Shown here in pieces: positions 17,803 to 60,634 of a stretch of DNA of 64,000 nt. A program made the position numbers and the translations under genes. This stretch comes from Mobula hypostoma. Taxonomy: Eukaryota. Position 1 is the stretch's first letter; the number at the start of each line of letters is the position of its first letter. The stretch is from NCBI RefSeq assembly GCF_963921235.1, contig NC_086097.1, positions 86,182,001-86,246,000 of the forward strand, written 5' to 3'. The notes beneath the pieces are model-generated. The model was given only the letters and a program-made list of their open reading frames with translations, was not told where the DNA came from and searched no databases.

Positions 17803-19220
17803 ACACACACAAAATGCTGGAGGAACTCAGCAGGCCAGGCATCATCTACGGAAAAAAGTACAGTCAACGTTTCAGGCTGAGACCCTTTGCCAGGACTGGA
17901 GAAAAAAGATGCGGAGTAGATTTAAAAAGGTAGGGAAGGGGAGAGAGAAATACAAGGTAATGGGTAGAACCTGGGGGAGGGGGGATGAAGTAAAGATTTG
18001 GGAAGTTGATTGGGTGAAAGAGATAGAGTGCTGGAGGCGGGGGGACCGATAGGTGAGAGCAGAAGACCGTGGAAGTAAGAAAAGGGGAGGAGCACCCAGA
18101 GGGAGGCAAGAGGCAGGCAAGAAGATAAGGTGAGAGACGGAAAAGGGGGTGGGGAATGGGTGAAGGGGAGGGGCATTACTGGAAGTCAAGAAAACGATCT
18201 TTATGCCATCAGGTTGGAGGCTACCCAGATGGAATATAAGATGTTGTTCCTCCAACCTGAGTGTGGACACATCACAACAGTGGAGGAGGCCATGATTGAC
18301 ATATTGGAATGGGAATGGGAAGTGGAATTAAAATGCGTGGCTACAGGGAGATCCTGCTTCTTCTGGTGGACAGAGTGTAGATGCTCGGCAAAACGGTCTC
18401 CCAATCTACGTCAGGTCTCATTGACATACAGGGGGCCACACCGGGAGCACCGGACACAGTGTATGACCCCAGCAGAATCACAGGTGAAATGTCGCATCAC
18501 CTGGAAGGACTGTTTGGGACCCTGAATGGTAGTGAGGGAGGAGGTGTAGGGACGTGTGTAGCACTTGCTCTGCTTGCAAGGATAAGTGCCAAGAGGGAGA
18601 TCAGTGGCGATTATGTCTAACAGAGAAAGCAGGATCTCCCAGTGGCCACCCATTTTAATTCCACTTCTCATTCCCATTCCAATATATCAATCCCTAGCCT
18701 CCTCTACCTTTGCAATGAGGCCACACTCAGGTTGGAGGAACATCACCTTATATTCCATCTGCGTAGTCTCCAACCTGTTGGCATGAATGTCAATTTCTTG
18801 AATCAGTAATGCTACCCATTCACCATTCCCCAACCCCTTTTCCCTCTCTCACCTTATCTGCTTCCATTGCTTCCCTCCAGTACTCCTCTCCCCTTTTCTT
18901 TCTTCCATGGCCTTCTGTCCTCCCGTATCAGACTCCCCCTTCTCCCTCTTCTCCAGCCCTGTATCTCTTTCACCAATCAACTTCCCAGCTCTATAATTCA
19001 CCCCCCTCCCCGGTTCCACTTATTACCTTGTGTTTCTCTGTCCCCTCCCCCATCTTTTAAATCTACTCCGCATCTTTTTTCATCCAGTCCTGCCAAAGGG
19101 TCTCGGCCCGAAACGTCAACTGAGCTTTTTCTCCATAGGTGCTGCCTGGCCAGCTGAGTTCCTCCAGCATTTTGTGTGTGTTGCTTTGATTTCCAACATC
19201 CGTAGATTTTCTCTTGTTTG
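17803..19220. mobile_element. Penelope-like element, inverted (fold-back) insertion with GIY-YIG endonuclease remnant and terminal hammerheads
   Basis: Minus strand VIHCVRCSRCGPLYVNET...RFAEHL...LPVATHFNSTSH...LEEQHLIFHLGSLQPDG (GIY-YIG); arms ~17803-18365 and ~18620-19180 are inverted copies; flanks AGATTAACATGG (17789) / AGATTATCAAGG (19221), a 10/12 TSD. Confidence 0.9.
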
Positions 19221-20591: not shown

Positions 20592-23500
20592 AGACCTTAA
20601 GACCATAAGATGTAGGAGCAGAATTGGGCCATTTGGCCCATTGAGTCTGTTCTGTCATTCAATCATGGCTGATTCCTTTTCCCTCTCCCTGGCCTTCTCC
20701 ACGTAATCTTTGATGCCGTGTTCAATCAAGAATCAACCAAACTCTGCCTTAAATACACCTAACAGCCTGGCCCCCACAGCTGCCTGTGGTAAAGAATTCC
20801 ACAAATTCACCACCCTCTAGATAAAGAAATTCCTCCGCATCTCAGTTTTAAATGGACACCCCTCTACACTGAAGTTGTGTCTCTTGCCCTACGCTCCTCT
20901 ACCATGGGAATGAGACAGGGCAGGTGACGGAGGTATGTGTTGGGGTGCACTTCGGGTCCAGTGATCACAATACCATTAGTTTCAGTGTAATTATGAAGAA
21001 GGATAGGACTGGACCTAGGATTGAGATTTTTGATTGGAGAAAGGCTAACTTTGAGGAGATGCAAAAGGATTTAGAAGGAGTGGATTGTGACAATTTGTTT
21101 TATGGGAAGGATGTAACAGAGAAATGGAGGTCATTTAAAAGTGACATCCTGAGGGTTCAGAATCTTTATGTTTCTGATAGGTTGAAAGGAAAGGTTAAAA
21201 GTTTGAGAGAGCCATGGTTTTCAAGAGATATAGGAAACTTGGTCCGGAAAAAGAGAGGGATCTTCAATAAATATAGGCAGCTTGGAGTTAATGAGGTACT
21301 CGAGGAATATAAAGAATGTAAAAAGAATCTTAAGAAAGAAATTAGAAAAGCTAAAAGAAGATACGAGGTTGCTTTGGCAAGTAAGGTGAAAATAAATCCA
21401 AAGGGTTTCTACAGTTATGTTAGTGGCAAAAGGATAGTGAGGGATAAAATTGGTCCCTTGGGGAGTCAGAGTGGATGGCTATGTGCGGAGCCAAAAGAGA
21501 TGGGGGAGATTTTGAACAATTTCTTTTCTTCGCTATTCACTAAGGAGAAGGATATTGAATTGTGTAAGGTAAAGGAAACAAGAAGGGTAGTTATGGAAAG
21601 TATGACAATTAAAGAAGAGGAAGTACTGGCACTTTTAAGGAATATAAAAGTGGATAAGTCTCCGGGTCCGGACAAGATATTCCCTAGGACCTTAAGGGAA
21701 GTTAGTGTCGAAATAGCAGGGGCTCTGACAGAAATATTTCAGATGTCATTAGAAACGGGGATGGTGCCAGAGGATTGGCGTATTGATCATGTGGTTCCAT
21801 TGTTTAAAGAGGGTTCTAAGAGTAAACCTGGCAATTATCGACCTGTGTGTTTGACATCAGTGGTGAGTAAATTGATGGAAAGTATTCTTAGAGGAGGTAT
21901 ATATAATTATCTGGATAGACAGGGTCTGATTAGGAACAGTCAACATGGATTTGTGCGTGGAAGGTCACGTTTGACAAATCTTATTGAATTTTTTGATGAG
22001 GTTACTAAGAAAGTTGACGAGGGTAAAGCGGTGGATGTTGTCTATATGGTCTTCAGTAAGGCCTTTGACAAGGTTCCACACGGAAGGTTAGTTAGGAAGG
22101 TTCAATCGTTAGGCATTAATATCGAAGTAGTGAAATGGATTCAGCAGTGGCTAGATGGGAGACGCTAGAGAGTAGTGGTGGATAACTGTGTGTCAGATTG
22201 GAGGACGGTGAGTAGCGGTGTGCCTCAGGGATCTGTACTGGGTCCAATGTTGTTTGTCATATATATTAATGATCTGGATGAAGGGGTGGTAAATTGGATT
22301 AGTAAGTATGCAGATGATACTAAGATAAGTGGTGTTGTGGATGTTGAGGTAGGTTTTCAAAGCTAGCAGTGAGATTTAGGACAGTTAGAAGAGTGGGCTG
22401 AAAGATGGCAGATGGAGTTTAATGTTGAAAAATGTGAGGTGCTACATTTTGGTAGGACTAATCAAAACAGGACATACATGGTAAGTGGTAGGGCATTGAA
22501 GAATGCTGTAGAACAGAGGGATCTAGGAATAGTGGTGCATAGTTCCCTGAAGGTGGAATCTCATGTGGATAGGGTGGTGAAGAAAACTTCCGGTATGCTG
22601 GCCTTTATAAGTCAGAGCATTGAGTATAGGAGTTGGGATGTAATGCTGAGATTGTATAAGGCATTGGTAAGGCCAAATTTGGAGTATTGAGTACAGTTCT
22701 GGTCACCGAATTATAGGAAAGATGTCAATAAAATTGAGGGAGTACAGAGGAGGTTTACTAAAATGTTGCCTGGGTTTCATCTCCTAAGTTACAGAGAAAG
22801 GTTGAACAAGTTAGGTCTTTATTCTTTGGAGCGTAGAAGGTTGAGGGGGTCTTGATAGAGGTGTTTAAAATTATGAGGGGGATTGATAGAGTTGACATGG
22901 ATAGGCTTTTTCCATTGAGAGTGCGAAGATTAAAACAAGAGGACATGAGTTGAGAGTTAAAGGACAAAAGTTTAGGGGTAATATGAGGGGGAACTTCTTT
23001 ACTCAGAGAGTGGTAGCTGTGTGGAACGAGCTTCCAGCAGAAGTGGTTGAGGCAGGTTTGATGTTGTCGTTTAAATTTAAATTGGATAGATACATGGACA
23101 GGAAAGGAATGGAGGGTTATGGGCTGAGTGCAGGTCAGTAGGACTAGGAGAGAGTGAGAGTTCAGCATGGACTAGAAGGGCCGAGATGGCCTGTTTCCGT
23201 GCTGTAATTGTTATATGGTTATATGGGAAACATCCTTTCCACATCTACTCTGTCTAGGCCTTTCAACATTTGAAGGGTTTCAGTGAGATCTCCCCTCATC
23301 CTTCTAAATTCCAGCAACAAGGCCATCTATACTATCGTCACAATCATTGATATTCAGCATAAAGAGAAGTGGTCCCAACATTGACCCCTGCGGAGCGCTA
23401 CTAGTCACTGGCATCCAACCAGACAAGGACCCTTTTATTTCCACTCGCTGCCTCCTACTAATCAGCAACACTCTAACCATGCTAGTAACATTCTTGTAAT

Positions 23501-36439: not shown

Positions 36440-37745
36440 AGCAGATGTAGCATTTCTCTTACTTCCAGGTATATGTGCCAGGAGGGAGATTACTGGGGAG
36501 GGATGAATAGATAAGGGAATCAACAAGGTAGCAATCTGTTCAGAAAGCGGAGAGTGAGAGGGAAAATAAAGATGTATGTGGTGGTAGGATCCCATTGAAG
36601 ATGGCAGAGGTTGTGGAGGATGACGTGTTAGAATCGAAGGTTCATGGGGTGGTAGGTGAGGATAAGGGGAAATCCATCTCTGTTGTGGTAGTGGGAAGAT
36701 GGGTTGAGCATGGATGTCCAGGAAATGTAGGAGATTTGGGTGAGAGCAGCATCAATGGTGGAGGAAGGGAAACCCCATTCTTTGAAGGAAGAGAACATCT
36801 CTGTTGTCCTGGAAAGCAAAGCTTCATCCTGGGAACAGATGTGGCAGAGATAAAGAAACCGAGGAAAGGGAATAGCACTCTTACAGGAGATAGGGTGGGA
36901 AGAGATATAGTCATGATTCCTGTGGGAATCAATGGCTCATAAAAGATAAAACATAGACTGGGCAGTCTATGAATTGTCTGTGTTCCAAGCCTTCCATGGA
37001 AACGCTCCCCAACTCTTTCTGCGTTATGGTGACAACTGTGTTGGTGCTGCTGCATGCACCCAGGTGGAGTTCATCATTTTCATCAACTTTTCCTCCAACT
37101 TCCACATTGCCCTTAAATTCATTCAGTCTATTTCTGATACTGCTCTCCCCTTTCTCAATCTCTGTTCTCAACTCTGGAGACAAACTATCTTTGAGACGGA
37201 GACAGAGAGATTGAGAAAGGGGAAAGCAGTATCAGAAATAGACTGAATGAATTTAAAGGCAGTGTGGAAGTTGCAGGCAAACCTGATAATGAAAATGATG
37301 AGTTCCACATGGGTGCATGAAACAACGTCAATACAGTTGTCACTGTAATGCAGAAAGAGTTGGGGAGCGTTTCCAGGGAAGGCTTGGAACACAGACAATT
37401 CATAGACTGTTCAGTCTATGTTTTACCTTTTATGAGCCATGGATTCCCACTGGAATCATGACTATATCTCTTCCCACCCTATCTCCTGTATAAGTGCTAT
37501 TCCCTTTCCTCAGTTCCTTCGTCTCTGCTACATCCATTCCCAGGATAAAACTTACCTATCCATGACAACAGAGATGTTCTCTACCTTCAAAGAATGGGGT
37601 TTCCCTTCCTTCAGAAAACACTGACTGTTCCACATAGCCAATGAAAAGGCAGGCATAGGTGGGGCCCTTGTGGGTGCCCATGGGTACCCCTTGAGTCTGG
37701 AGAAAGTGAGAGGAAGCAAAGAAGAAATTGTTGAGGCTAAGGGCC
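36440..37745. mobile_element. Penelope-like RT region scrambled by multiple inversions (~400-bp inverted repeat 36762-37164 / 37203-37610)
   Basis: Minus LNNF..SSHFLQTQGVPMGT..GPTYACLFIGYVEQS (37745-37622); PQLFLRYGDNC (YIDD motif) on both strands; DSHWNHDYISSHP...IPFPQF; RDGFPLILTYHP. Confidence 0.9.
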
Positions 37746-48342: not shown

Positions 48343-51127
48343 AAAAGCTGCAAGTTTTTTGACAGGAGTTGTTGATTGGAGTACTGTGCAGATGCAACAG
48401 AAGCATTCCCACACAGGACTGAAAAAGATTTTCGACGGGAAGCCCACTCTCTATAGAAGAGAGGTACCACCTACCGGGGCAGTCATCATGGGAAGGGTTG
48501 CCATCGGAGTAGTCTGAGACAGAGTAGGAAGGATTTGGCTCAAACAGGGCTTCAGTGAGAACAGGTGGAGTCCAGGTAAGTTCATTCCTTATTTCTTATT
48601 CAACTCTAGAGAAAACAGGGGGCATGTCTACAGAGCTGGTGTTCTGTTCTGGCTGTCCGATGTGGGATTTCCAGGAGACTCCCAGCCTCCCCAATGGCCC
48701 CACCTGCACCAGGTGAATCGAGATGCAGCTCCTTAGAGTCTGAGTTAGGGAACTGGAACTTCAACTCGATGAACTTCAGCTTCTTGGGGAAAGTGAGGCA
48801 GAGATAGATAAATGCTAGAAGGCCACAGGAGACAGATAAATGGGTGACTGTCGAGAGAGGGAAGGGGAAACATCAGATTATGGAGAGCACCCCTGTGGCC
48901 ATCCCTCAATAATAAGTACTCCATTTTGTGTACTGTTGGGGGGATGACCTACCTGTGGGAAGCAACAGCGGCTGTGACTCTGGCACTGAGTCTGGCCCCG
49001 TGGCTCAGAAGGGTAGGGAACTGAAGAGTTACAGCAGTTATAGGGCACTCTACAATCAGAGGGACAGATAGGCGATTCTGTGGATACAAAAAGGAAACAT
49101 GGATGGTAGTTAGATAGAAGGGTTCTTGACGTTTCTGGACGCGTCCACAATATCCTGAGAAGAGAGGGTGAGCAACCAGAAGTTGTGGGTACCAACGACA
49201 TGAGAAGAAAAAAGGAGGAGGTCCTGAAAACAGAATACAGGGGATTAGAAAGGAAGCTGAGAAGCAGGACCTCAAGGGAAGTAATCTCTGGATTACTGCC
49301 TGTGTCACGCGACATTGAGGATAGCAATAGAATGAGGTGGCAGATAAATGCATGGCTGAAGAATTGGGGCGGGGGGTAGGGATGCAGATTTCTGGATAAC
49401 TCGGACTTCTTCTGGGGCAGGTGGGACATGTACAAAAGGGACAGGTTGCACTTGAATCCGAGGGGGAGCATTATTCTTGCGGGCAGATTTACTCGAGCTG
49501 TTGGGAGCAGTTTAAACTACTATGGCAGAGGATGGGAACCAGAATGACAGAGCTGAGGATGAGCCAGCAGGTTTACTAGTAGATTATGGGTGCAACATGA
49601 AAGGACAAGCCAATGATTGGGTACAAATATGGACAGAAAAAAAGAGTTAAATTTAAAAGTGTGAAGAACATAGGACTGAAGGTGCTGTATTTAAAAGTAC
49701 GTAGCATTTAGAATAAGGTGGATGAACTCGAGGCACAATTAAAGATTGGTCGGTATGACGTTGTGGGCATCACTGTGTCGTGGCTGAACAAATTAGACTT
49801 AGACAAATTGGAAGACTGGGCAGAAAAGTGGCAGATGGAATACAGTGTTGGCAAATGTATTATAATACATTTTGGTAAAAGGAACAATAGTGTAGACTAT
49901 TATTTAAATGGGGAGAAGGTTTAAGCAAGAGAGGTGCAGAGGGATTTAGGAGTCCTCATGCAAGACTCTCAGAAGGTTAATTTACAGCTTGAGTTTGTAG
50001 TAAAGAAGACAAATGTAATATTGGCATTTATAGAATATACGAGGGGTGATTGATAAGTTTGTGGCCTAAGGTAGACGGAGTCAATTTTAGAAAACCTGGT
50101 ATATTTATTTCCCTACATTTACACTCTTAGTCCAGCGGTCATGGAGCATACGGATCTCTTCTTTGTAGAAGTTGGTGTCTTGGGCCTCCAGGAGTGGTCC
50201 ACAGCAGGGTGAATGATAAGTTTGTGGCCGAAGGTAGAAGGAGATGAGTTATTAACTTCAAGTTTTCTGCATTTTCACTCAAAGAGTTGAACTGCACGTG
50301 AATGTAATGAGAGCTGTATAACTCATCTCCTTCTACCTTAGGCCACAAACTTATCAATCACCCCTGCTGTGAACCACTTCTACAAAGAAGGGATCCATAT
50401 GCTCCACGACCGCTGGAGTAAGAGTGGACATGTAGGAGAGGACTATGTTGAAAAATAAGTGTGCTAGGTTTTCTATTTTGACTCCTTCCACCTTCGGCCA
50501 TGAACTTATCAATCACCCCTTGTAAAAGCAAGGAGATAATACTGAGGCTTTATAAGACACTGGTCAGGCCACACTTGGAGTATTGTCAACAGTTTTGAGC
50601 CCCATGTCTCAGAAAGGCTGTGTTGTCATTGGAGAGAGTCCAGAGGAGGTTCACAAGGATGATTCCAGGAATGAAGGGTTACCATATGAAGAGTGTTTGA
50701 CAGCTCTGGGCCTGTACTCACTGGTTCTTAGAAGAATGAAGGGGGGATCTTTTTGAAAACTACTGAATGTTGAAAGGACTAGATAGGGTGGATGTGGAGG
50801 GGATGTTTCCTATGGTGGGGGTATCCAGAACTAGAGGGCATAGCCTCAAAATTGATGGCAACCTTTTAGAACAGAAGTAAGGAGACATTTTTGAAAACCA
50901 GAGAGTAGCTAATCTGTGGAATGCTCTGCCACAGTCTTTGGTGGAGGCCAAGTCTGTGCGTATATTTAAGGTGGAAATTGATTGTTTCCTGATTGGTCGG
51001 GGCATCAAAGGATATGGGGAGAAGGCAGATTATGGGGTTGAGTGGGATCAGCCATGATGGAATGGCAGAGCAGACTCAATGGGTTAAATGGCCTAATTCT
51101 GCTCCTATCTCTTATGGCCTTATGGTC
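48343..51127 (+). mobile_element. CR1 LINE with 5' UTR/ORF1 and large internal ORF2 deletion, inserted in the Gypsy leader
   Basis: ORF1 AVIGHS, GTND, DRLHLN; EN start YDVVGITVSWL fused at ~49790 to post-RT LDKLEDWAEKWQM; tail (TCTTATGG)n; TTATCAT on both flanks. Confidence 0.88.
50040..50522. mobile_element. Mariner-derived palindromic MITE with four TIR copies
   Basis: TA|CGAGGGGTGATTGATAAGTTTGTGGCCTAAGGTAG ... CTTATCAATCACCCCTTG|TA; inner TIR pair 50205-50366; transposase C-terminus FYKEGIHMLHDRWSKSGHVGEDYVEK* at 50378-50458 and its inverted copy on the left. Confidence 0.9.
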
Positions 51128-51973
51128 TTATCATTGTTTATGAACCAGTAAAATCATCCATTTTTTGCCTTTTTATAAAACTGAATGTTTTGTTCTCCCC
51201 CTTTGAAGAAAAAATACATGTTTTTTTTTTAAAAACTCAAACATCTCATTATGCCTCAACAGTTAGGTAATCATCTCAGATTTGTTTAAAACCTCCTCAT
51301 TGTCACTATTATGTTGTGTAACTCCAAAACATAAAACTAATTGAAGGCAAAATGATGGAGACAGGAATAACATGTCTAATTTCATTTTTCTTGAAGCAAA
51401 GCTCTTGCATATAGCATGGTGGCATAAGATAAATGCCATACAACCCACAACTTAACAACAAAGAATGCTTAATCAAAAAATATATTTCCAATATTACTTA
51501 AATATTACTGAAATATTAAATACACAAGAGTTTGCTAAGAAATTTCTATCACAGCTTTAAATGACTATTCTCCAGTCTTGTAACTATGCCCTCTTGTCAA
51601 AGACTTTCCTACTTCAGCATCTACCCAGCCATATCCCCTTTAGCATTTTAGATATTTCAATAAAACTAACCCTCATTTTTCCCAAACTCCAAAAGTACAG
51701 ATATAACTCCTTTAGCCACGATGGTGGGACAAACTTTTTCGTCCTAGGAATTAACCTCAAGAATTCCCTTTGGGCTACCTTCAATGCTAGCATATTTATG
51801 CTTAAGGAGGAAGCTAAAACTGAATGTACTACTCAGTGAGTTTCAATAAGTGCATTTAATGTCAGAGAAATGTATACAATATACATCCTGAAATTCTTTT
51901 TCTTTGCAGACCTCCACGAAAACAAAGGAAAGCCCCAAAGAATAAATGACAGTTAAAACATTAGAACCCCCAA

Positions 51974-52225
51974 CCGTAAACACAAAATAACCTGCAGATG
52001 CTGGGGTCAAAGCAACACTCACAACACGCTGGAGGAACTCTGCAGGTCGGGCAGCATCCGTGGAAAAGATCAGTCGACGTTTCGGGTCGGAACCCTTCGT
52101 CAGGACGTTTTGGGCCGGAACACTTCGTTAGGTCCTGACGAAGGGTTCTTGCCCGAAATGTCGACTGATCTTTTCCACGGATGCTGCCCGACCTGCTGAG
52201 TTCCTCCAGCATGTTGTGAGTGTTG
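51974..52225. mobile_element. Penelope-derived 252-bp fold-back mini-element with three hammerhead cores
   Basis: Perfect 14-bp TSD ATTAGAACCCCCAA (51960-73 / 52226-39); 94-bp inverted arms 52013-52106 / 52132-52225. Confidence 0.92.
52071..52106 (-). ncRNA. Minimal type I hammerhead ribozyme, intact core
   Basis: Minus strand GUC-CUGACGA-A-GGGU-UCCG-ACCC-GAAA-CGUC^GACUG: CUGANGA and GAAA boxes, stem II, palindromic ACGU stem III, GUC cleavage triplet, stem I GUC/GAC. Confidence 0.85.
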
Positions 52226-53177
52226 ATTAGAACCCCCAATGTCCCTCCCACATACAAGCAGCAGCAGGGCAACAACCCTCCACCCCCACCAGCAACAAAG
52301 CATCAGCACCCTCCAGGTGGGACTAACAAGACTTCCCTATTTCTGAGCTACAGCATCCCTGCCAAAGAAGTCAATATTCTGCTTGCCTCCCCAACTACCT
52401 GCTGCAACTGCCCGCTAACCTTTCGTGATTCATCCATATGAAAGGTCTAATGCCTCTGCGCTCCATTCATCTACATAAATAGCAACAAAACAACATAGAA
52501 ATTGTCTCTTTAAACCACAGATGCAAAAGCAGATACTGACCTAAGCATAATGTTTGTCTTCTGGTACTTTTAAATGACAGTTTGAATCATATTGTACAGT
52601 CACCGTGAACTTGAACTTTTGCAAATAGTATCAGCAGACCTCAAAGACCGACTGCTATCTTCCGAATGTTTGGAAAGATTTGGGTTAATGCTGCAAGGGA
52701 TTTTATATTTGAAAGAATGAATATCCCTGAAAATCTCATGAGGAAAAGCATTCTAAGACATCGTTATATACAATGATCTGACAAACTGTCAGAAATTGGG
52801 TTACCTTGGAAGATATCAAATAGTTCACACATTTCCCCTACACGAGGATTTTCAATGTCGTTACATGAAGCAACAATATTCTAAAATCTAGCTGATTTTA
52901 TGCAATGTGGATCACCATTTGAAACTTCCCTGGCATATAAATAGAGCATCATTTTCTTTCCATTTTCAGCTAAAGTTTTTCTTCCGATCAGTCACGTGGA
53001 ACTATGGTTACCATCCTGAGTGATTTTTGTGATTTTCCAACTTATGGGCAATGTCAATAATGGACAAGATGTACTGATTGACTTCTGTGGAAACAGAACA
53101 TGTCCATAACTTGGGGACTGTAATTCATTACCAGAAAAGTCCTTCAGAGCATCTGAACATTTGAATGCTGCTGTGTA

Positions 53178-54385: not shown

Positions 54386-54744
54386 ACATAAAGCACTCTA
54401 TTTATCTGACATTCCAAAATCCAAAAACCTCCGAAATCCAATTTTTTTTTTTTGGAGCGCTGACATGACATCACAAATGGAAAATTCCATAAGGAGTTGG
54501 GAAGGTTCCCAGGTAATGCGCAGGTCTCTGTGCATACAGACAGTTCTGAGGAGTGACCTCACATATGTACTGAACAGAAGATAATGACAAATGGAAAAAC
54601 ACACATAAAGTGAAAAAAGATCTTGATCATGTATTGAAAAAGCGACAGAGTGAACATATTCCTCTTAACAGTATGCTGCTCATGAAGCAAGTGAAGATCT
54701 ACCACAAGGACCTGAAAATTGAAGGTAATTGTGAATATTCAGCA

Positions 54745-55003
54745 AGCAACAGGAATTCTGCAGATGCTGGAAATTCGAGCAACACACATCAAAGTTGCTG
54801 GTGAACGCAGCAGGCCAGGCAGCATCTCTAGGAAGAGGTACAGTTGACGTTTCGGGCCGAGACCCTTCATCAGGACTAACTGAAGGAAGAGTTAGTAAGA
54901 GATTTAGGGACCTCTTACTAACTCTTCCTTCAGTTAGTCCTGACAAAGGGTCTCGGCCTGAAATGTCGACTGTACCTCTTCCTAGAGATGCTGCCTGGCC
55001 TGC
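54745..55003. mobile_element. Penelope-derived 259-bp fold-back mini-element with twin hammerheads
   Basis: Perfect 15-bp TSD TGTGAATATTCAGCA (54730-44 / 55004-18); 94-bp inverted arms 54808-54901 / 54912-55005 with a 10-nt loop. Confidence 0.93.
54841..54882 (-). ncRNA. Minimal type I hammerhead ribozyme (core intact, one CpG transition in stem I); mirror copy on + at 54931-54972 is CpG-decayed
   Basis: Minus strand AGUC-CUGAUGA-A-GGG-UCUCGG-CCC-GAAA-CGUC^AACUG. Confidence 0.8.
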
Positions 55004-57303
55004 TGTGAATATTCAGCAGGCTGGTTGCAGGAATTAAAGTAAAGGTATGGCATTACATTTTTGAAGATTTGTGGTGATAAAGCTTCTGCTGATCATGAAG
55101 CAACAGAGAAATTCATAGATGAGTTTGCTGAGATCATCGCTGATGGAGATCTAACATGCTGAACAGTTGCATCAATATATATGTGTGATGGAGAAGTGTA
55201 CGACAAAGACTGGTTATTGGTAGCACATAAATTCAGAGTCAAGAATGATATCAAACAGCCACTGACTGTCCACCTGGGCGGCTGAGGTAGTGATAGCTTA
55301 CCTTTCTGATGATTTAGTGTACAAATGATTAAAAATATTATACCTTCCGAGTATATGTACTGTATAATTTATGCAATATAAATGGATTTTGTCTTTAGGC
55401 TTGGGTCCCACCCCAAAGCTATCGCATTATATGGATGCAAATATTCCAAATTCCGAAAAAAGCTGAAATCCGAATCCCTTCCAGCCCCAAGCATTTTGGA
55501 CAAATGAACCTGTAGTTCATTCCAACTTCTTAGTAAGTTTAATGTTGCGATCCTGCATTCCAATACAACTTACATTGCAAAGTAAAGGAGTGACAGCCTG
55601 TCTACCTCATTCCATTAGGATTAACTTGCATATTTCTGGACGCCACAAATCCTTGTCGCCACAACAGCTCTCGATACACTCACATCTTTTTGTTGATTTC
55701 TTTCTAAAATCTGCTCAAACTTTTGAATAATATCCCGTTATCACCAACCTCTTTATAGAAACTCTTGGCCAAGTCAGCCATGGATACAGCTCAGTGAAGG
55801 GTAACTTGAAAATAGCTGAGCAACCATGGAAAGAGATTTTCTTATCATTCTTTGGCTGTATTATCATTTATTGTGCACCACCAGTGATCCTGGGGAGATG
55901 ATGGTCACTCCTCTACTTAATCCCTGTAATTACAGTTGCAGCAATCTCCCCAGCCCATGGAAGTGTTAGGTAGTGGGTTCTGGATTTTGATCAAATGACA
56001 ATGAAGTGGGCAATATTTACACTATGCAAGAACAATGGATAAACTTGGGAGGTGTTGCCAAACACTGGAGACTAAATTTACAATAACCATTTGTACCACT
56101 ATGGTCACAAAGCCTTCTTTCTCCACTGTATCTCCAAAGTGAAACTTTATTTTGCATCGGCATCCTTCAGTTAGGTAAAGAAAGACGAGATAAATCAATC
56201 ATTTCCATTGCAGTGATCTAATGACAGTCTCATTCACTATTGGGGCAGCCACTTGGACAGTATTCTTTGGGAGTGCAACATTCACACATAAGGAACCATG
56301 ACCAACTATCAGAGATGCTGGTAAGCTGGGGAACAAAATGCCTCACTCACACATTTTAATTGCCATAACCAATCAGGAACAAAAATAACTCAAGGGATGC
56401 ATTCAAGCTTGCCACAGTGTAAAAGCTATTGACATTGGTATACCTAATTAGAATTAGCATACTAAATTGGGTTCACCTGGAGACAATCTAACTAAGTATT
56501 CATTGCAGCAAATTTTGTGACGTAATAAGACGAATCTTGGGAAATGTTCAAATTGACATCTGTTCTTGTTTCCTCTCTGACCTTGAGTGAGGGCAGAGAT
56601 CGAATAGTAATTCACTTACGCAGTTAGACAGAATTCACCTTCTACTGTTGGGACTGGCCAATCAGAAGTTCGGACATAAGTTCAGAATAAGATCAAAATA
56701 GAGATATCTTGTAGTGGGAAATGGAGCCGAGCAGGCATATTACAGAATGGAAGAATCGATGACATTCCTGATATATTTTTAAACATGCAACACTTTCCAT
56801 AAAAGATGCAGGGTGATTAAATGTTTGCTGTGAAGCACTACTGACAGCTGCTCCTGGTTCATCCATGTCTGATAGTTTCACTGGTATTTATAAAGACGCA
56901 GAAGAAATCTCAACACATACCAAGGGCTGTTTTCTTAAATAAGTGAAGATTTTTTGCAATTTTCTTCAGAACTGCATCAGCATGAGGATGGGAACCGAAA
57001 TGGGGATATACAGCATCAGTTTTAAGTCATTAATTGGATCCAAATTCAGTTTAGACTAAGAGTTGGAAAGATCTAGTGCAATGTACATCTGGGTTACATT
57101 TGATGTATTTTGGCTAGCACTCAATAGCCAGACCTTTTTAGGATGCAAGAGCAGATGGTCTGAAACCTGACATTAAGCCACAAGTAGCAGGAACCAGCAT
57201 CTGGGTCTATATTAACACCATCACAGCTGAGTCAAAAGGCCTTAGGTTTAAAGTCCATCTCCAGAAACTTCAGAACACCATCTGTACTAACACAGAAGTT
57301 CTC

Positions 57304-57748: not shown

Positions 57749-60634
57749 GGTAGGTTTGCTAGAGAGGCTCCAGTGGATTTAAACTAGATACAAGGGGGGA
57801 GGGGAAGAAAAAGAAAATAGTAAAGTTGTTTGCACCATTGGTGATAAACAGAGAGTAAGAGGTAGAAAATTTCTTAAATGCATTTATTTTAATGCGAGGA
57901 GCATTATAAGAAAGGTGGATGAGCTTAGGGCATAGATTGATACCTGGAAGCATGATGTTGTAACTATGAGTGAAACATGGTTGCAGGAGGGGTGTGATTG
58001 GCAACTAAATATTCCTGGATTTCATTGCTTCAGGTGTAATAGAATGGGAGGGACAAGAGGGGGAGGTGTTGCATTGCTTGTCAGAAAATATTACAGCAGT
58101 GCTCTGGCAGGATAGATTAGAGGGCTCATCTAGGGAGGCTATTTGGGTGGAATTGAGGAATGGGAAAGGTGTAGTAACACTTATAGGGGTGTATTATAGA
58201 CCACCTAATGGGGAGCAAGAAGTGGAGGAGCAAATTTGTAAGGAGATAGCGGATATTTGTAGTAAGCACAAGGCTGTGATTGCAGGAGATTTTAATTTTC
58301 CACACATAGACTGGGAAGCACAAACTGTAAAAGGGCTGGATAGTTTGGAGTTTGTAAAATGTGTGCAGGATAGTTTTTTGCAGCAATGCATAGAGGTACC
58401 AACTAGAGAAGGGGCAGTGTTGGATCTCCTGTTAGAGAATGAGATAGGTCAGGTGATGGAGGTATGTGTTGGGGAGCTCTTTGGATCCAGTGATCACAAT
58501 GCCATTAGTTTCAATATAATTAAGGAGAAGGATAGGTCTGGACCCAGGGTTGAGATTTTTGATTGGAGAAAGGCTAACTCTGAGGAGATGCGAAAGGATT
58601 TAGAAGGAGTGAATTGGGACAAATTGTTTTATGGGAAGGATGTAATAGAGAAATGGAGGTCATTTAAAGGTGAAATTTTGAGGGTACAGAATCTTAGGTT
58701 GAAAGGAAAGGTTAAAAGTTTGAGAGAGCCATGGTTTTCAAGGGACATTGGAAACTTGGTTCAGAAAAAAGAGAGGTATCTACAATATATATAGACAGCA
58801 TGGAGTCAATGAGGTGTTCGAGGAATATAAAGAATGTAAAAAGAATCTTAAGAAAGAAATTAGAAAAGCTAAAAGAAGATATGAGGTTGCTTTGGCAAGT
58901 AAGGTGAAAATAAATCCAAAGGGTTTCTATAGTCATATTAATAGCAAAAGGAGAGTGAGGGATAAAATTGGTCCCTTAGAGAATCAGCGTGGATGGCTAT
59001 GTGCGGAGCCAAAAGAGATGGGGGAGATTTTGAACAATTTCTTTTCTTCGATATTCACTAAGGAGAAGGATACTGAATTGTGTAAGGTAAGGGAAACAGG
59101 TAGGGAAGTTATGGAAACTATGATGATTAAAGAAGAGGAAGTACTGGCGCTTTTAAGGAATGCAAAAGTAGGTAAGTCTCCGGGTCCTGACAGGATAGTC
59201 CCTAGGACCTTGAGGGAAATTAATGCAGAAATAGCAGGGTCTCTGACAGAAATATTTCAAATGTCATTAGAAATGGGGATGGTGCCTGAGGATTGTGTAT
59301 TGCTCATGTTGTTTCATTGTTTAAAAAGGGTTCTAAGAGTAAACCCTAGAAATTATCAGCCTGTGAGTTTAACGTCAGTGGTGGGTAATTTGATGGAAAG
59401 TATTCTTAGAGATGGTATATATAATCATCTGGATAGACAGGGTCTGATTAGGAACAGTCAACATGGATTTGTGTGTGGAAAGTCATGTTTGACAAATCTT
59501 ATTGAATTTTTTGAGGGTAAAGCGGTGGATGTTGTCTATATGGACTTCTGTAAGGCCTTTGTTTAAGTTCCACACAGAAGGTTAGTTAGGAAGGTTCAAT
59601 CGTTAGGTAATAATATTGAAGTAGTAAAATGGATTCAGCAATGGCTGGATGGGAGATTCCAGAGAGTAGTGGTGGATAACTGTGTGTCAGATTGGAGGAT
59701 GGTGTGTAGCGGTGTGCCTCAGGGATCTGTACTGCGTCCAATGTTGTTTGTCATATACATTAATAATCTGGATGAGAGGTGGTAAATTGGATTAGTAAGT
59801 ATGCAGATGATACTAAGATAGGTGGTGTTGTGGATAATGAAGTAGGTTTTCAAAACTTGCAGAGAGATTTAGGCCGGTTAGAAAAGTGGACTGAAAGATG
59901 GCAGATGGAGTTTAATGCTGATAAATGTAAGGTGTTACATTTTGGTAGGACTAATCAAAATAGGACATACTTGGTAAATGCTAGGGCATTGAAGAATGCA
60001 GTAGAACAGAGGGATCTAGGAATAATGGTGCATAGTTCCCTGAAGGTGGAATCTCATGTGGATAGGGTGGTGAAGGAAGCTTTAGGTATGCTGGCCTTTA
60101 TAAATCAGAGCATTGAGTATAGGAGTTGGGATGTAATGTTAAAATTGTACAAGGCATTGGTAAGACTAAATTTGGAGTATTGTGTACAGCTCTGGTCACC
60201 GCATTATAGGAAAGAAGTCAACAAAATGGAGAGAGTACAGAGAATATTTACTAGAATGTTACCTGGATTACAGAGAAGGGTTGAGCAAATTGGGTCTTTA
60301 TTCTTTGGAGCGTAGAAGGTTGAGCGGGGACTAAATAGAGGTATTTAAAATTATGAGGGGGATAGATAGAGTTGACTTGGATAGGCTTTTTCCATTGAGG
60401 GTAGGGGAGATTCAAACAAGAGGACATGAGTTGAGAGTTAGGGGGAAAAAGTTTAGGGGTAACATGAGGGGAACTTCTTTACTCAGAGAATGGTAGCTGT
60501 GTGGAACGAGCTTCCAGCAGAAGTGCTAGAGGCAGGTTCGATATTGTCATTTAAAGTAAAATTGGATAGCTATATGGACAGGAAAGGAATGGAGTGTTAT
60601 GGGCTGAGTGCAGGTTGGTGGGACTAGGTGAGAG
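57749..60634 (+). mobile_element. CR1 LINE ORF2 (EN plus RT), same subfamily as 20910-23224
   Basis: YFNARSI, GVYYRPP, GDFNFP, GSSDHN, KSPGPD, KYADD; peptides nearly identical to the 20924 ORF. Confidence 0.95.

Follow-up and report, generated by a model that had tools for sequence, protein, structure and literature searches.

The question raised by this locus is whether a short palindrome that carries a hammerhead motif on each strand, inserted in a Tigger-type transposon of Mobula hypostoma, is a mobile element in its own right or the debris of a larger one. All positions are those of the window, the 64,000-nucleotide stretch of DNA that was analysed (contig NC_086097.1 of assembly GCF_963921235.1, positions 86,182,001 to 86,246,000, forward strand). 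The initial annotation left two alternatives, an extremely truncated inverted integrant of a Penelope-like element (PLE), arising by fold-back, and a self-propagating, retrozyme-like short element, and the data presented herein show the truncated PLE integrant to be right. We put the probability at about 0.7 that the locus is a single heavily 5'-truncated head-to-head PLE stub, likely primed twice on one RNA after a staggered cut of the target. The stub encodes nothing and has not multiplied.

The two inverted arms in the window lie at 54808-54901 and 54912-55005; each is 94 nt long, they are 95% complementary and they are 10 nt apart. A 15-bp target site duplication (TSD) surrounds them, the left copy at 54730-54744 (plus strand) being an exact match to the right copy at 55004-55018 (plus strand), and the sequence thus confirms both the 259-bp palindromic insert and the perfect TSD that had been described around it. 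The insert is nevertheless asymmetric, as the left arm alone has 63 further element bases (54745-54807). In element coordinates, where position 0 is C3 of the hammerhead core, BLAST to long copies of the parent family places the left arm at -32 to +128 of the PLE 3' end (54745-54905, minus strand) and the right, tail-less arm at -28 to +65 (54912-55005, plus strand), the final 2 bases of the latter being common to the TSD as microhomology. The 10-nt spacing of the arms stands as first reported, but the apparent loop is really 4 further element bases of the left arm followed by a 6-base filler at the head-to-head joint (54906-54911). The left arm carries a one-sided tail at 54745-54778 (minus strand), which from 3' end histograms corresponds to about +95 to +128, between the two usual 3' end points of the family; one-sided tails between two such end points are described in PMC8557442 and PMC11167929. 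The longer arm ends at +128 in 92 of 137 pairs of the family. The arms differ in 5 of 94 columns, and all 5 differences fall in the 10 CpG-class columns with none in the other 84, which bears out the earlier view that they are CpG transitions. After insertion each arm decayed on its own at its CpGs.

The host of the insertion is a decayed, older Tigger/pogo-type DNA transposon, which from paralogue matches extends over 54402-55503 (plus strand) and is about 80% identical to its paralogues on the left side and 67-85% on the right. Of 11 paralogues fetched, all 7 in plus orientation have the 15-mer as a single copy in uninterrupted sequence, and these empty sites confirm the duplication. When the insert is removed the Tigger frame reads CEYSA|GWLQ through the junction, as had been claimed, but a stop follows 7 codons past it. 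A Pfam scan of the 55-residue Tigger piece in the window gave no match, and a paralogue was therefore scanned instead; one paralogue ORF contains Pfam HTH_Tnp_Tc5 and CENP-B_N. The locus is a dead stub within a dead transposon and on its own is ordinary.

The arms are, as read from the sequence, the 3' end (hammerhead and tail) of a Neptune-type PLE. A 31-base hammerhead probe has 37,098 exact matches in the 3.48-Gb genome and a 26-base probe further 3' has 105,038, with 0 for the reversed control in each case, and the family density is one arm per 33 kb. Arm lengths range from tens of bases up to 2.7 kb. Long copies extend upstream into an ORF with reverse transcriptase (RT) and GIY-YIG domains, and it is onto the 3' end of these copies that the arms map; the Pfam score of GIY-YIG in them is above the cut-off while that of RVT_1 is below its own (E 3.8e-5). 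The translation of a 2.8-kb copy contains DKG, YIDD, a CX4CX2C linker and a CC inside GIY-YIG. Neptune is defined in PMC8557442 by a CX2-5CxxC linker before GIY-YIG, a CC inside GIY-YIG and a DKG motif, and the same source gives the linker as common to Neptune and Nematis. The copy has all of the Neptune motifs, and the clade is assigned by motif rather than by tree. The family also has the traits of endonuclease-bearing PLEs, namely 5' truncation, an inverted copy at the 5' end, a one-sided tail and a TSD.

Could such a palindrome multiply as a unit? We regard a self-propagating palindromic retrozyme-like element as very improbable here, and likewise the copying of an older palindrome by way of its transcript. 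The central junction has 1 match in 3.48 Gb when up to 2 mismatches are allowed, and a junction that is unique genome-wide means that there is no self-amplifying family. Head-to-head pairs as such are abundant, with 2,311 in which both hammerhead probes lie within 120 bases of each other and 2,426 whose joint falls inside the hammerhead or next to it, and among the 50 matches listed per search their junctions vary widely and continuously, with a few simple ones recurring. These are the unique junctions that the initial annotation had itself said would leave independent truncated insertions in place of a self-propagating element. The published retrozymes (PMC7229834; bioRxiv 10.64898/2026.07.22.740005) are, like this locus, short, non-coding, hammerhead-bearing and PLE-derived, but they are described there as head-to-tail tandems with at least two hammerheads on the same strand, whereas the locus is one inverted pair with a private junction, each strand holds only one sense hammerhead, and we found neither head-to-tail repeats of that kind nor many copies of one fixed unit. 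Some recurrence does speak for copying of palindromes. One simple junction recurs about 11 times among 100 matches listed (counted by eye), and one non-trivial junction is common to two loci with different TSDs. However, two copies with the recurrent junction differ in their flanks and in the side that bears the tail, which is what a microhomology hot spot would produce, and the shared complex junction has only 2 matches genome-wide, so that a family built on it was rejected. The two loci in question (L268 and L270, contig C1, near 8.875 and 9.716 Mb) have this junction in flipped orientation and also share a rare hammerhead variant; only these 2 exist, and they may represent a rare palindrome copy or an ectopic conversion. 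Partial head-to-tail tandems of the family were seen at two other loci (L142 and L221), an arrangement that could put two same-strand hammerheads in one RNA.

The hammerheads themselves are of the PLE type, as was first thought. The family motif fits the minimal type I descriptor of PMC4209133, with a 5-pair helix I, an extra A after A9, a 4-pair helix II and a palindromic ACGU that lacks a loop, and one copy (L062) has every part of it, namely the C3-A9 core, helices I and II, GAA, ACGU and NUH. Column counts of the motif were taken over 204 arms, and in young copies position 11.1 is mostly U (140 of 187 arms). The covariance-model check that had been suggested gave no support, since the Rfam scan returned no hammerhead family among 13 matches at E<=10, all of them generic microRNA hairpins under their gathering scores, and the ribozyme call therefore rests on the published minimal-hammerhead descriptor. 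At the locus, the left hammerhead (54841-54878, minus strand) has an intact core and a G1.1>A change at 54845 that breaks the first helix I pair, beside the cut site. The right hammerhead (54935-54972, plus strand) has G8>A at 54945 and C15.2>T at 54964. The CTGA(Y)GA core that had been noted in each arm therefore holds for the left arm but reads CTGACAA in the right, and neither copy combines an intact core with a closed helix I. The anole PLE ribozyme depends on G8, as tested there with G8C (PMC11167929), and the right-arm ribozyme is predicted to be inactive; with both copies mutated, the locus as a whole would probably have no ribozyme activity. Both motifs are intact in 22 of 79 sister pairs that span both, and the ancestral insert most likely had two intact hammerheads, in agreement with what had been deduced from the CpG differences.

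It had also been suggested that a transcript of either strand would be a switch between a long hairpin and a ribozyme fold, which we now consider unlikely. The insert folds as a hairpin at -194.7 kcal/mol (z = -24.6), a value equalled by 0 of 200 shuffles. The head-to-head order of the arms means that on both strands the antisense copy is transcribed ahead of the sense hammerhead. Constraining the full insert to form the hammerhead helices has a computed cost of 65 and 60 kcal/mol, compared with 8 for a single-arm copy. Folding thus predicts that a read-through transcript would form the 94-bp hairpin instead of the ribozyme. The thousands of near-perfect hairpins of this family are a potential source of double-stranded RNA.

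The manner in which two arms come together is best seen in the family as a whole. Arms ending at or beyond +110 were classed as tailed and those ending at +80 to +109 as mid. Among 154 unique head-to-head joints there were 121 tail+mid pairs, 14 tail+short pairs, 1 tail+tail pair and 1 three-part case; in 17 the second piece was internal, mid+mid pairs were absent (0), and no joint was tail to tail. Where both arms end at the usual 3' sites of the family, one is tailed and the other tail-less in 121 of 122 pairs. The first scoring covered 84 pairs, 26 of which had been ranked by BLAST against this element, and the unbiased samples are from the start of one contig. An earlier count that left out the BLAST-ranked loci gave 88 mixed pairs versus 1. 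The sole tail+tail pair (L235, contig C1:394000-403999) has arms of 2.76 kb and 0.93 kb and a blunt joint. A sample of 105 arms was drawn from the start of contig C1 with the 3' probe only; 54 of them directly adjoin an inverted arm from the tail region, 8 have an inverted internal piece and 43 are alone. Tail-less ends lie at 84-103 both in paired arms (n=28) and in solo copies (n=31), and since the two are alike the inner end point exists without a partner. An exact TSD of at least 8 bp is present in 105 of 137 pairs, and in 73 of those 105 it is 13-15 bp long. The joints of the 137 pairs are divided among overlap (65), blunt (9) and filler (63). At five loci (L035, L124, L153, L213 and L223) the inverted piece is from further upstream, in the ORF or its untranslated end, and stops short of the tail region.

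Paired arms are also related to each other in sequence and in length. They agree at 672 of 733 non-CpG subfamily sites versus 461 expected, and their 5' reach correlates (rho 0.66, n=52; 29 short/short, 17 long/long and 6 mixed). However, a single RNA template is not universal, as 12 of 104 pairs have at least two subfamily sites at which the arms differ. Shared CpG decay is also in excess (14 vs 5.8 expected), and therefore conversion between arms, or age structure, may inflate the allele sharing, which could in part also reflect the dominance of one subfamily at a time. The locus itself is one of the less common short-class joints (14 of 154) and has almost symmetric arms, and for these reasons the rule seen in the population does not settle how this one copy arose.

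At their 5' ends, 39 of 105 arms stop between -20 and +19 (3 of the 39 being clipped by the edge of the fetched stretch), compared with about 0.03 per base upstream of -80. The median stop is -3.5 for tailed arms (n=26) and -2 for tail-less arms (n=33), and because both kinds of arm stop at the same position we rejected stops determined by length. The sharpest peak, at -3/-4, is made up of 10 of 66 short arms, with solo copies that directly adjoin their TSDs among them; among non-inverted copies ending at -8 to -2 the TSD abuts directly in 4 of 8. The ribozyme cut was rejected as the cause of truncation, although it may make a small contribution, since ends do not pile up where the ribozyme would cut: of 30 arms chosen because they end at +14 to +37, none ends at +28/+29 and 2 end at +27, ends at +28 make up about 2 of some 85 informative lines among 100 matches listed (by eye), and in less selective lists 2 of 105 arms, and by eye about 4 of some 62 lines, end at +28/+29. 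The lack of a peak at +28 suggests that the RNA copied in this family is mostly uncleaved. In vitro, the RNA copied by the anole element is likewise mostly uncleaved (PMC11167929).

The upstream edge of the stop zone is gradual (judged partly by eye), and the ends at the locus lie in its upstream shoulder. A self-complementary GATC accounts in part for a local cluster of ends at -30 to -32 (10 of 30 arms); further upstream than -28 the ends become gradually fewer, and a sharp RNA start at -32 was not established. A start of the RNA near -8 to -4, a stretch that we take to be initiator-like, or stalling at RNA structure would fit the stop zone. There is also a branch-point-like and acceptor-like stretch at -24 to -7; a spliced template as the cause was rejected, as no common exon precedes the arms that end at -3 to -8 and as the TSD directly adjoins half of the non-inverted cases noted above. 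At the locus the branch-point-/acceptor-like stretch, here taken as -24 to -2 (54916-54938), can form a 7-bp hairpin that overlaps the 5' strand of helix I and that the parent RNA might adopt as an alternative fold. In D. virilis an intron ends at helix I (PMC4209133). A pile of ends at -57 was an artefact of the reference copy and was disregarded, and four runs that we guessed to be RNA, searched as assembled contigs only, contained no start, end or informative joint.

Based on the end points of the arms and the TSDs, we infer that these insertions begin with a staggered cut whose two ends both prime, using two start sites and mostly one RNA. Specifically, the enzyme of the element would cut the target with a stagger of roughly 15 bases, and reverse transcription would likely be primed from both cut ends on one RNA. 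One target end would start at the far (tail) site, +128, and the other further in, usually at +84 to +103 and at the locus at +65, where it has a 2-base match to the target. Both cDNAs would run through the hammerhead and stop a short way upstream of it, where a stop zone that is tied to element coordinates has its shoulder. They would then be joined head to head by host end-joining, at the locus with the 6-base filler. We further hypothesize, a little less firmly than for the locus itself, that the inverted pLTR and the one-sided tail of PLEs are a single phenomenon that results from a dimeric enzyme with a 13-15-bp stagger and two fixed start sites about 33 bases apart, since two such sites on the same RNA would give a two-armed product with one tailed and one tail-less arm.

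The most serious competitor is fold-back, in which the tail-primed cDNA stopped at -32, gained the filler, copied 94 bases of itself and was joined to the other target end. Self-priming was proposed for the inverted junctions of PLEs (PMC3846280), and for the locus it is a possible, if unlikely, route. It fits the tailed arm reaching further 5' than its partner (-32 vs -28), the nearly symmetric joint, the absence of any non-CpG difference between the arms and the non-standard +65 end of the second arm, and it fits the 8 of 14 short-class pairs that are symmetric within 4 nt. However, without the BLAST-ranked copies the excess of symmetry is not significant (3/8 vs 15/65, p=0.40), and 3 of the 14 short-class pairs have a geometry that fold-back forbids. 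In the family, the tail-less arm reaches more than 10 nt further 5' than the tailed arm in 46 of 121 tail+mid pairs, and for these fold-back fails, since a cDNA with a tail offers no template past its own end and one without a tail offers none for the tail; the fold-back origin put forward by the initial annotation therefore survives as a route open to this locus but cannot account for those 46 sister insertions. It also leaves unexplained why the end points of second arms coincide with those of solo copies. The least probable of the explanations are two independent insertions into the same site and a rearrangement of the DNA at a later time. With arms so densely spaced neighbours are common, but a single TSD encloses both arms, and the frequency of abutting inverted partners, which are never tail to tail and follow a strict one-tail rule, argues against chance neighbours.

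Much of this architecture has precedent. Inverted truncated copies, one-sided tails and TSDs are standard for PLEs, and the architecture of the locus is already published: an inverted 5'-truncated pLTR with a 30-40-bp one-sided tail and a short TSD is described for Adineta Pen2a/Pen2 (PMC3846280), and inverted PLE insertions are described in an overview (PMC8557442) and for Drosophila virilis Penelope (PMC2377424). As in these elements, the locus has a 5' head-to-head inverted copy, a tail on one arm, a TSD round the whole unit, and microhomology or filler at the junctions. It differs from them in that its arms are only 94-161 bp and without an ORF, and in that the family is large enough to count end points; the TSD is 13-15 bp in the Mobula family compared with 8-10 bp given for Adineta (PMC3846280). 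Minimal type I hammerheads of metazoan PLEs, and opposite-strand pairs of them 100-700 bp apart, were already reported in 2014 (Cervera and de la Pena 2014, PMC4209133). The Mobula motif shares with the hammerheads described there the 4-5-bp helix I, the extra base between A9 and G10.1 and the loopless palindromic 15.2-16.2, and differs in its 4-bp helix II (7-8 bp is reported for Schistosoma), in the mostly U at 11.1 in young copies and, at this locus, in the mutation of both copies.

The closest biochemical parallel is anole Poseidon PAc in vitro (Frangieh et al. 2024, PMC11167929), where both strands are cut and extended by the PLE protein and copying begins at two internal RNA sites, one on either side of the tail. 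The Mobula family likewise has two 3' end points bracketing the tail and a hammerhead that is probably read through uncleaved, but it is Neptune-type by motif, and the biochemistry of two start sites is from Poseidon only. The accessible text of PMC11167929 draws no link between the two start sites and the arms of inverted insertions. Our search, which covered literature outside subscription journals, Repbase and supplements, found no published assignment of the two start sites to the two arms, and those three sources may describe the Mobula family or the two-site model. In L1 twin priming, which was reportedly described by Ostertag and Kazazian in 2001, both target ends are said to prime on one RNA and to give an inverted 5' piece within one TSD. 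Several sister copies resemble this in having a non-overlapping upstream inverted piece; in PLEs the primers usually start about 33 bases apart, and hence the cDNAs overlap and the product is a palindrome, unlike in L1.

The value of the locus is that of one record of PLE integration among many thousands. The integration step is called undefined in PMC8557442 and is left unvalidated in PMC11167929. If the two-site hypothesis is true, tens of thousands of stubs would record two-site priming, and also that copying tends to stop where the uncleaved hammerhead has its 5' edge, which may be the start of the RNA. Predictions that are directly testable in the anole in vitro system follow from the rule of one tail per pair, from the narrow range of TSD lengths and from the alleles that the arms share.

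Other repeats are present in the window. A second head-to-head stub at 51960-52239 derives from a related but older subfamily; its TSD is about 15 bp long and its joint contains an additional hammerhead piece. The inverted insertion at 17803-19220, which also belongs to an older subfamily, is larger and has arms of about 570 bp that are 82% alike, with a tail on the right arm only. The 855-bp palindrome at 36759-37613 is 87% self-complementary and by eye its ends resemble a PLE ORF; no hammerhead end was seen in it. The 487-bp element at 50038-50524 has terminal inverted repeats and an internal repeat of its own end, and is presumably a mariner-type MITE. A 2.2-kb direct repeat at 20908-23154 and 58437-60634 has 89% identity between its copies.
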